Part shown: in pieces, positions 29,228 to 45,123 of the stretch
Position numbering within the stretch: the stretch's first letter is position 1
Layout: each line of letters opens with the position of its first letter
Assembly (NCBI RefSeq): GCF_003334765.1
Contig: NZ_QOWT01000028.1
Reading direction: 5' to 3' (one strand)
Source: Escherichia coli
Lineage (GTDB): Bacteria > Pseudomonadota > Gammaproteobacteria > Enterobacterales > Enterobacteriaceae
Length of the DNA stretch: 52,994 nt
The notes under the pieces: model-generated
Database searches by the model: none
What the model saw: the letters and a program-made list of their open reading frames with translations, nothing else
Told to the model about the DNA's origin: nothing
Position numbers and translations under genes: made by a program

Positions 29228-30169
29228 TCAACGCGCTAAAGCTGCGGTCAGCGCCGGAAGGATCTTCACGGCGTCGCCAACAATGCCGTAATCCGCGTAC
29301 TGGAAGATCGGCGCATTTTTATCTTTATTGATGGCGAAAATGGTTTGCGACGCGTTAGCGCCAACCATGTGCTGGATCTGCCCGGAGATCCCCACCGCCA
29401 GGTACAGTTCAGGTTTCAGCATCAGGTTGGAGATACCGACATAGCGTTCGTGCTCCATCCATTTTTCGTTTTCCGCCACCGGACGAGAACAGGCCAACTC
29501 CGCACCTATCGCCTTGCAAAGCTGTTCTGCCAGCGCAATGTTCTCTTTGCTGCCAATACCGCGACCGACGCTGACCACCAGACGGGCTTTGTCGAGATCG
29601 ACGCTGTTGCTCTGGCGCGCCTGGGTTGCCGTGCGGGTAATCGCCACAGCCGGAGCCTGCCACTCCACGGTGTGCGTTTCGCCAGTGCGTGACGCGTCTG
29701 GCTGAGCCGCATCGAACGTGCCGCTGCTGATGGTCAGTACCGCATACGGCGTGGCAATGCGTTCTTCGCCAATCGCCAGACCACCGTAAACCATGTGTTT
29801 CACTGTCGCTTTACCGTCCTGTACGCTGACGGTGCTGGCATCGTTAGACACCGCCGCTTTAAGGCGATAACCCAGTTTTGCCGCCAGTAATTTGCCGCGA
29901 CGGGTGTTTGGCAGCAGCACCAGGCCGTCTGCGCCGTGCTGGCGAATAGTGTCAGCCATGACACCGGCGTAATCTTCGATCATCCGATCGTCCGGTTTGC
30001 CGTTTAATTTCCAGACATGATTAGCGCCGAGCTGGATTGCCTGTGCGCCGTCGGCATCATTGAGGACAAAGGTGTTGATTTGATTAGCTAAAGCCTGCGC
30101 ACCGTTCATCAGTTCCGGCAGACGAGAAGGGGTATCGCTGAATACCCAGACTTGAGAAAACGTGTTCAT
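29228..30169 (-). CDS. fixB: electron transfer flavoprotein alpha subunit homolog FixB
   Basis: 313-aa [33 protein letters not shown]... Confidence 0.94.
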
Positions 30170-38582: not shown

Positions 38583-38757
38583 GCCGGATGCGGCGTAAAC
38601 GCCTTATCCAACTCTGCTGGAGAGCAACCGTAGGCCGGATAAGATGCGCCAGCATCGCATCCGGCGATAGCTGTCGGATGCGGCATAAACGCCTTATCCA
38701 ACCCGGCTGGAGAGCAACCGTAAGCCGGATAAGATGCGCCAGCATCGCATCCGGCGA
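38583..38757. repeat. tandem duplication of an 85-bp REP-pair (BIME) unit, period about 90 bp
   Basis: Copy A 38583-38667 and copy B 38673-38757 are near-identical (gccggatgcggcgtaaacgccttatccaac...gccggataagatgcgccagcatcgcatccggcga) with a few substitutions. Confidence 0.8.
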
Positions 38758-39443: not shown

Positions 39444-42665
<3,222 letters not shown>

Positions 42666-42682: not shown

Positions 42683-43831
42683 TTACTTAGCGGTTTTACG
42701 GTACTGCTCAATTAACTCGATAAAGTGGTCGAACAACGGCGCTGCGTCGTGTGGCCCAGGGCTGGCTTCCGGGTGACCCTGGAAGCTGAACGCCGGTTTA
42801 TCAGTGCGATGAATGCCCTGTAACGTACCGTCGAACAGGGATTTATGCGTGACACGCAGGTTTGCAGGTAATGTTGCTTCATCCACCGCAAAACCGTGGT
42901 TCTGGGCGGTGATCATCACCACGTTTTTCTCCACATCTTTAACCGGATGGTTGCCGCCGTGGTGACCAAATTTCATTTTGACAGTCTTCGCACCGCTCGC
43001 CAGCGCCAGCAGCTGATGACCGAGGCAGATGCCGAATACCGGAATATCGGTTTCGAGGAATTTCTGGATGGCGGTAATGGCGTAATCGCACGGGGCCGGG
43101 TCGCCAGGACCGTTGGAGAGGAAGATACCGTCTGGATTCATTTTCAGCACATCTTCCGCAGAAGTTTGCGCCGGAACGATGGTCAGGCGACAGCCTCTAT
43201 CCACCAGCATCCGCAGGATGTTGCGTTTGGCACCAAAATCATAAGCCACGACGTGGAACGGCAGCTCGTCTTCTTTTTTCGCTTCTGGCATGCCGCCGGT
43301 CAACGTCCAGCTCCCTTGTGTCCAGCTATAGGCTTCTGCGGTGGTCACTTCTTTTGCCAGATCCATGCCGTTCAGACCTGGGAACGCGCGGGCTTTTTCT
43401 AACGCCAGCGCCGCATCCGGGTTATCGCCCGCGATAATGCAGCCATTCTGTGCGCCTTTCTCGCGCAGTAAACGCGTCAGCTTACGGGTATCGATATCGG
43501 CAATCGCCACGATGTTATGGCGTTTCAGGTAAGAAGAGAGGTCTTCGGTATTACGGAAGTTGCTGGCAATCAGCGGCAGGTCGCGAATCACCAGACCTTG
43601 TGCATGTACCTGAGAAGATTCTTCATCGGCGTCATTAGTGCCGACATTGCCAATATGGGGATAAGTAAGAGTAACGATTTGACGAGAATAGGAAGGATCA
43701 GTGAGGATTTCTTGATAACCGGTCATTGAAGTATTGAAAACGACTTCCCCAACCGCCGAACCTGTTGCCCCTATGGCCCGACCGTGAAACTGGGTTCCGT
43801 CTTCCAGAACCAATAGCGCTGACTTAATCAA
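42683..43831 (-). CDS. carA: carbamoyl-phosphate synthase small (glutamine amidotransferase) subunit
   Basis: 382-aa protein from a UUG start at 43831 ([23 protein letters not shown]...); the track ORF begins 9 codons upstream at a GTG. Confidence 0.95.
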
Positions 43832-43841
43832 AACACCCTCC

Positions 43842-43878
43842 AGAGAATATTCACTCACTTTATTTGCATATTAATTCA
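43842..43878 (-). promoter_or_regulatory. tandem ARG boxes (ArgR operator) at carAB P2
   Basis: Minus-strand reading TGAATTAATATGCAAATA-A-AGTGAGTGAATATTCTCT: two 18-bp ARG boxes immediately upstream of the carA start. Confidence 0.75.
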
Positions 43879-44052
43879 CAATGATGACGTAAATCAATGC
43901 AAATCTGCTTACCGACGAATTTCTGGCAAACGGCGGCATTCTGGAGATATGGGCGCTAAAAGTCAACTTAATGGCGGGATTTTTTATATTATTTTGTGGC
44001 TCATGCATGTTTTACATGCATTAAGCGACAAAAAGATCATATAACCTGTTCT

Positions 44053-44068
44053 GGAAAACGCTTGCGCA
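44053..44068 (-). promoter_or_regulatory. candidate PurR box in the carAB upstream region
   Basis: ggaaaacgcttgcgca resembles the PUR box core (A-G-AA-CG-TT-C); assignment is tentative. Confidence 0.4.
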
Positions 44069-44106
44069 GCAAGAAGATTGCATGAAATAAAAACGAGCAG
44101 GGAAAA

Positions 44107-44123
44107 TTGGACCAAATGGTCAA
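44107..44123. promoter_or_regulatory. RutR-type palindrome upstream of carAB P1
   Basis: ttggaccaaatggtcaa (minus strand TTGACCATTTGGTCCAA) fits the TTGACCA-N2-TGGTCAA consensus. Confidence 0.6.
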
Positions 44124-44199
44124 AATTTACATTAAAACAACAAAAACCGAAGACAAAACATGTAATTTTTGGCGCTTATAGATAATTTAAAAACATAAC

Positions 44200-44234
44200 A
44201 CTAAAAATAAAAGGGCCAAAAATTAAAGCCCTTT
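44200..44234 (-). terminator. putative intrinsic terminator downstream of dapB
   Basis: Perfect 7-bp stem AAAGGGC / GCCCTTT with an 11-nt loop; on the minus strand it is followed by UUAUUUUUAG. Confidence 0.5.
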
Positions 44235-44286
44235 ATAATCAATAAATTAAATATGTTATTTTTGCACCATAAAAAATATTTTGTGG

Positions 44287-45123
<837 letters not shown>

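Follow-up and report, generated by a model that had tools for sequence, protein, structure and literature searches.

A canonical carAB control region between dapB and carA in an Escherichia coli contig: regulatory sites and their conservation across Enterobacterales

Results

The locus and its correspondence to K-12

The stretch of DNA analysed here, referred to below as the window (52,994 nucleotides of contig NZ_QOWT01000028.1, Escherichia coli assembly GCF_003334765.1), belongs to the E. coli chromosome and is reverse-complemented with respect to K-12, positions 43832-44286 making up the entire dapB-carA intergenic region, which is read on the minus strand. The following genes and features were located in and around this interval, with positions given in window coordinates and distances, unless otherwise indicated, counted from the carP1 start:

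44287-45108, minus strand: dapB (open reading frame listing and reading of the sequence)
44289-44287, minus strand: dapB stop codon (sequence)
44218-44255, no strand assigned: IHF footprint, -324 to -287 (from PMC6245113)
44237-44249, plus strand: IHF core AATCAATAAATTA, an exact match to WATCAANNNNTTR inside the mapped footprint
44203-44234, minus strand: dapB intrinsic terminator, 8-bp stem 44234-44227 / 44217-44210 followed by a U-run
43991-44211, no strand assigned: DNA wrapped by the PepA hexamer, -280 to -60 (transferred from PMC6245113)
44108-44123, minus strand: RUT box TTGACCATTTGGTCCA, RutR site, -192 to -177
44052-44067, minus strand: PUR box GCGCAAGCGTTTTCCA, PurR site, centred at -128.5
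44035-44038, no strand assigned: Dam GATC site, methylated A at -106 (44037)
43928-43966, minus strand: carP1, promoter controlled by pyrimidines, purines and ppGpp (promoter scan, PMC6245113 and conservation)
43966-43961, minus strand: carP1 -35, TTGACT (promoter scan)
43943-43938, minus strand: carP1 -10, CAGAAT (promoter scan)
43937-43932, minus strand: carP1 discriminator GCCGCC, matching its description in PMC6245113
43931, minus strand: carP1 +1 G, 100 nt before the TTG
43930-43928, minus strand: carP1 TTT slippage tract (sequence and PMC6245113)
43879-43931, minus strand: ES003 small RNA (Rfam RF02750, full-length match)
43864-43897, minus strand: carP2, arginine-repressed promoter, start at about 43864
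43897-43892, minus strand: putative carP2 -35, TTGATT
43874-43868, minus strand: putative carP2 -10, TAATAT/TTAATA
43863-43880, minus strand: promoter-proximal ARG box TGTGAATTAATATGCAAA, 1 mismatch, over the carP2 -10 and start (about -16 to +2 of carP2)
43842-43859, minus strand: promoter-distal ARG box AGTGAGTGAATATTCTCT, 3 mismatches, in the carP2 leader (about +6 to +23 of carP2)
43837-43841, minus strand: Shine-Dalgarno sequence GGAGG, 5 nt before the UUG
43829-43831, minus strand: carA UUG (TTG) start, equal to the MG1655 carA start (K-12 29651)
42683-43831, minus strand: carA coding sequence, start aligned to the MG1655 annotation
39444-42665, minus strand: carB (open reading frame listing and reading of the sequence)

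Window positions are converted to K-12 coordinates as 29651 + (43831 - window position). The alignment of the region to MG1655 is gap-free, with 13 differences among 511 aligned bases, of which twelve are intergenic, all in the upstream half, and one (44294) is in the coding end of dapB. None of the 13 falls within a mapped core site, and from 44016 down to the carA start codon the sequence is identical to that of K-12, the part carrying P1, P2 and the ARG boxes matching MG1655 base for base. A 701-base query over the region had a match in every complete E. coli genome searched (5426/5426), each time between dapB and carA, with an identity of at least 99% in only 61 of them; the sequence variant of the upstream half is carried by about 1% of complete genomes.

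The original prediction had described this interval as the expected multi-input control region of carAB, a description borne out by the collinearity with MG1655, by the 5426 genomes and by the transfer of published coordinates. When compared with the carAB P1/P2 region, all five elements that it had named are present within 0-2 bases of where they had been put: the tandem ARG pair, described as abutting the start, extends two bases further at one edge (43842-43880, given as 43842-43878), one edge of the RutR palindrome (given as 44107-44123) is off by one base, and the PUR box lies one base away from the proposed 44053-44068. The inventory had nevertheless left out carP1, carP2, the IHF site, the PepA wrapping and the GATC site, as well as the GUUU tract of reiterative transcription, ES003 and the terminator of dapB that the AT-rich tract harbours.

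Elsewhere in the window, Rfam gave two above-threshold matches to naRNA4 (RF02564), at 15083-15162 (plus strand) and 38633-38703 (minus strand), one of which lies just downstream of carB. The naRNA4 family derives from REP elements.

Phylogenetic footprint across the order

Loci for comparison were collected by a DNA-pattern scan of species-representative genomes, which returned 120 loci, 116 of them Enterobacterales carA and the remaining four comprising three chance matches and one non-enteric MAG. The footprint alignment consists of 106 upstream regions. The core of the proximal ARG box, TGAATTAATATGC, is kept without change by 106 of the 118 non-redundant loci, and mismatches to the ARG consensus were counted in these 106.

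In this alignment the start codon, GGAGG, both ARG boxes, the area of the P2 -35 and the elements of P1 stand out as conserved islands. Further upstream, the same holds for T- and A-tracts that lie between P1 and the PUR box, for the PUR core GCAA.CGTTT, and for the terminator of dapB and the IHF core. A footprint of about 106 Enterobacterales loci thus supports the predicted ARG, PUR and IHF sites together with both promoters. This constitutes a small gain for specialists, in that the PUR box, IHF core, ARG pair, promoters and UUG are found order-wide, with the RUT box in two families only.

The carP1 promoter, its slippage tract and ES003

A promoter scan independently found TTGACT-17-CAGAAT at 43966-43938. 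In the RutR contact-mapping paper, counting from the TTG gives positions 100 higher than counting from the carP1 start, and this start was therefore placed at the G at 43931 in GTTTGCC. The GUUUGC start, the discriminator and reiterative transcription at this promoter have been described in a 2018 review (PMC6245113), and the corresponding arrangement, GCCGCC followed by GTTTGCC, is present on the non-template strand at 43937-43925. Across the order the -35, -10, discriminator and TTTGCC are conserved in the 106-locus alignment, the T3 tract being kept as GTTTGCC or AATTTGCC.

ES003 was matched over model positions 1-53 of 53 with 87.4 bits (gathering score 37) and corresponds to nucleotides 1-53 of the carP1 transcript, its 3' end meeting the border of the proximal ARG box. 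This RNA was reported at K-12 29551-29603, starting precisely at a mapped transcription start site, and its level was 133-fold lower in stationary phase (Rau 2015). It may be a fragment of the P1 leader and not an independent regulator, or may have a 3' end related to ArgR.

The carP2 promoter and the ARG boxes

The start of carP2 was put at 67 nt after that of P1 (PMC6245113). Its hexamers were assigned from the sequence, a simple promoter scan staying below its threshold at this position, and the -35 area TTTGCATTGATT is conserved across the order in the 106-locus alignment. Given a P2 start at 43864, the ARG boxes overlap the -10 and the start but not the -35.

Scanning with an 18-bp ARG consensus (WNTGAATWWWWATTCANW) places the two boxes exactly 21 bp apart centre to centre, with a 3-bp spacer. 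At no more than 3 mismatches the same scan found 6 sites in the whole window against 4.06 expected, which is not above chance, and as a bare motif match the distal box is likewise not above chance; the pair stands out by its 1-mismatch box, the 21-bp phasing and its conservation in 106 loci. Over these loci the mean number of mismatches to the consensus is 1.17 for the proximal and 3.14 for the distal box, against a mean of 9.1 for background 18-mers, only 0.12% of which reach 3 or fewer. In the distal box T3, G4, A5, T7, T11, A12, T13, T14 and C15 are near-invariant and the unspecified positions vary; such a near-invariant core with the other positions free is the signature expected of a protein-binding site. 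The predicted ArgR operator, 43880-43842 or about -16 to +23 of carP2, has the consensus, the spacing and the phylogenetic footprint in its favour. Its placement probably agrees with the published carAB ARG box sequences.

Sites acting on carP1 from upstream

The RUT box has a single mismatch to its 16-bp palindromic consensus TTGACCANNTGGTCAA and is above chance, 0.17 matches with no more than 2 mismatches being expected per window. Its position is exactly that published (-192 to -177), within a RutR footprint of -200 to -170, equivalent to window 44131-44101 (PMC6245113). Among the footprint loci, a RUT box centred at -184.5 to -187.5 was found only in Enterobacteriaceae and Erwiniaceae (Pantoea, Erwinia) and was absent from Yersinia, Serratia, Pectobacterium, Photorhabdus, Providencia, Edwardsiella and Budvicia.

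Tested against a 16-bp consensus (ACGCAAACGTTTTCNT), the PUR box shows 3 mismatches, and the 2 matches found window-wide are not above the 2.18 expected by chance. A PurR site centred at -128.5 from carP1 has been described (PMC6245113), and PurR ChIP-chip assigned to carAB the motif TGGAAAACGCTTGCGC at K-12 29415-29430 (Cho 2011), with which window 44052-44067 agrees letter for letter. The PUR box of the original prediction therefore aligns with the mapped PurR site, the comparison that had been named as its decisive check. The core GCAAnCGnTT lies at -128.5/-129.5 in most Enterobacterales families; in Providencia it was observed one helical turn further upstream (-139.5). The case for this box is made by the published site and by the constant location seen in other species, not by its motif score.

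PepA has no sequence consensus, and its wrapped coordinates were transferred from the 2018 review, according to which PepA wraps about 230 bp with PEPA1/PEPA2 protection, enclosing both the RUT and the PUR boxes, and the GATC 106 bp upstream of the P1 start is protected by PepA/IHF (PMC6245113). The TTGAT of the IHF core is at least 90% conserved across the order. Two further motifs conserved to at least 90% across Enterobacterales, ATGTTTTG at 44153-44160 (-222 to -229) and TTTTTG at 44028-44033 (-97 to -102), match no named site; they lie in the PepA-wrapped DNA and may be contact points for PepA.

A perfect palindrome with 8-bp arms, ATGCATGT-AAA-ACATGCAT, was also observed at 44003-44021 (-72 to -90 of carP1). 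The palindrome arises from an A at 44017, a position occupied by C in K-12, and the exact 45-mer is shared by just 57 of the 5426 E. coli genomes. Being imperfect in K-12, restricted to these 57 genomes and poorly conserved between genera, it was rejected as an additional operator.

The AT-rich tract and the dapB terminator

The long AT-rich tract, originally given as 44120-44290, was confirmed by the GC content, which is 0.22-0.28 from 44100 to 44300 and 0.5-0.58 in the genes on either side. Within it lie the stop codon and terminator of dapB as well as the IHF site, and it takes in the upstream end of the DNA wrapped by PepA. The terminator (fold energy -10.5 kcal/mol) was also found as an inverted repeat and is conserved across the order in the 106-locus alignment; a simple terminator scan did not pick it up because loops in that scan are limited to 8 nt, and the hairpin, whose loop exceeds this limit (9 nt in the fold), was recovered by folding. 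The terminator and the IHF footprint of carP1 overlap, and dapB transcripts therefore read through the IHF site.

Positions 44203-44258 (minus strand) align to the terminator (3') half of the Salmonella DapZ model (RF02551, model positions 21-78). An intact DapZ sRNA in this tract was rejected, as the match reaches 24.3 bits against a gathering threshold of 56 and covers the terminator half only.

The UUG start of carA

The UUG start proposed for carA in the original prediction holds, 43831 being the annotated K-12 start at 29651, and the TTG start has also been pointed out in the 2018 review (PMC6245113). At the homologous position TTG is present in all 116 other Enterobacterales carA loci (116/116), with GGAGG at a 5-nt spacing in 115 of the 116; an in-frame ATG next to the TTG was found in only one locus, that of Serratia microhaemolytica. 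The carB start is ATG in all 57 readable loci (57/57). The order-wide invariance of the UUG start and of GGAGG five bases upstream is a mildly new point.

Synonymous variation is low in the first ~60 codons of carA (43650-43831), where normalised codon entropy is 0.31-0.5, compared with 0.7-0.79 in later parts of the gene, and rare codons are kept there (GGA in 103/103, CGG in 82/103 and TCA in 98/103 loci).

The GTG at 43858, with which the longest open reading frame begins, was rejected as the true carA start: it has no Shine-Dalgarno sequence, lies inside an ARG box and is put out of frame by indels in several genera. A mini-frame, GTG-TTT-TGA, was observed at 43828-43836 (minus strand), overlapping the TTG out of frame and reading ATG-TTT-TGA in Pantoea, Erwinia and others; with its start codon touching the Shine-Dalgarno sequence, it is probably unused.

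Discussion

We regard the interval, with a probability of about 0.96, as the canonical and well-studied E. coli carAB P1/P2 control region, in which arginine, pyrimidine and purine signals are read. The identity, position and conservation of its sites were established in this analysis, and their binding and regulatory roles are taken from the literature. Under this reading carP1, starting at the G at 43931, would be controlled from a distance by PepA, IHF, RutR and PurR: IHF would bend the DNA at 44255-44218, PepA would repress the promoter by wrapping about 230 bp (44211-43991), and unliganded RutR at 44123-44108 would counteract this repression until released by uracil. Purine repression would be added by guanine- or hypoxanthine-bound PurR at 44067-44052 only within PepA-remodelled DNA, PurR being unable to repress carP1 without PepA (PMC6245113). 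At the promoter itself, high UTP would cause the polymerase to slip on the GUUU start and to produce dead-end transcripts, and the GC-rich discriminator would confer sensitivity to ppGpp. For carP2, where binding and repression by ArgR depend on arginine (PMC6245113), a single arginine-loaded ArgR hexamer occupying both ARG boxes (43880-43842) would shut the promoter off. The boxes lie over the -10, the start site and the early part of the leader, so that RNA polymerase would be excluded. Translation of carA would then begin at the UUG at 43831, behind a strong GGAGG.

Where exactly ArgR sits, and whether the upstream boxes are sites at all, are the points at which this account could be read differently. 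The operator might instead be a pair one helical repeat upstream (43901-43884 and 43880-43863), over the carP2 -35 and -10, with 43859-43842 being only leader RNA. The review describes two 18-bp imperfect palindromes with 3 bp between them that partially overlap the P2 -35 (PMC6245113), wording that suits such a pair, as does the conservation of TGCATTGATT, the first half of the upstream 18-mer. That 18-mer, however, has about 9 mismatches to the ARG consensus, with a mean of 9.65 over the 106 loci that equals background; its 3' half is not conserved, its conserved half is accounted for by the P2 -35, and it is in the downstream box, 43859-43842, that precisely the ARG core positions are retained order-wide. 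The operator was placed at 43880-43842 on the strength of the mismatch means of the two boxes and the conserved core of the distal one, set against an upstream 18-mer at background, and we consider the upstream pair very improbable and reject the in-phase 18-mer 43901-43884 as an ARG box. Still harder to credit is the view that the PUR box, RUT box and IHF core are chance matches in an AT-rich spacer that is really only the 3' end of dapB and its terminator. The tract does contain that terminator, and within the window the PUR match does not exceed chance; yet the published footprints and the ChIP-chip motif coincide with the sites to the base, the RUT match is above chance, the PUR core keeps a fixed distance from P1 in most Enterobacterales with the RUT box doing so in two families, and loss of purine or uracil control of carP1 upon mutation of the boxes has already been reported (PMC6245113).

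Somewhat less far-fetched, though we doubt it, is the idea that the invariant UUG, the fixed Shine-Dalgarno spacing and the nearly invariant first codons form a separate translational throttle or regulatory element on the carA mRNA. The counts for TTG and GGAGG and the low synonymous variation over the first ~60 codons speak for it. Against it, carB, which has an ATG start, shows similar synonymous conservation (0.39-0.67), the carA leader and 5' coding RNA are not unusually stable (z = +1.41), Rfam placed no cis-element over the 5' coding RNA, the start codon or the Shine-Dalgarno sequence and gave ES003, in the upstream P1 leader, as its sole match above threshold in the region, and no literature report of separate translational control via the carA UUG was found. 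A hidden element behind the 5' synonymous conservation is consequently unsupported as anything special, given the similar values for carB and the ordinary RNA stability. That the UUG is under order-wide purifying selection, together with GGAGG and the abutting ARG box, to set or regulate CarA translation is a speculation to which we give little weight; if true, a selected UUG could limit translation or sense the state of initiation factors or ribosomes, and would represent a post-transcriptional layer of control previously undescribed for this heavily studied operon.

In conclusion, the region read here as the canonical carAB control region is an ordinary example of one already known in detail and among the most thoroughly dissected in bacteria. 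The discovery value is small, with every mapped site intact in the sequence, and the case is of use as a calibration, a tool-free reading having put four operator types within 2 bases.

Comparison with known systems

The closest system is the carAB P1-P2 region of E. coli K-12 and Salmonella (Piette 1984; Charlier 1988-2018, PMC6245113), with which the present region shares the locus, gene order, length and the sequences of the mapped sites, differing by 12 single-base changes in the upstream half and outside the core sites. The ES003 RNA (RF02750; Rau 2015) is matched exactly and at full length, beginning at the carP1 start. As in other operators of the ArgR regulon, which consist of two 18-bp boxes with a 3-bp spacer, the same pair geometry and overlap with the promoter are seen, but the distal carAB box, with its 3 mismatches, is the weaker one and forms part of the transcribed leader beside the Shine-Dalgarno sequence. 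The PUR box is the same 16-bp GCAAnCGnTT-type site as those of the PurR regulon and is bound in vivo on addition of adenine (Cho 2011); instead of overlapping the promoter, it is located 128.5 bp upstream. Finally, the carA motif, a riboswitch candidate of beta-proteobacteria to which Rfam gave no match in this region, is likewise positioned directly upstream of carA and thought to control it, but whereas that motif is an RNA hairpin in Polynucleobacter (Brewer 2021, PMC8632094), E. coli uses protein factors instead.
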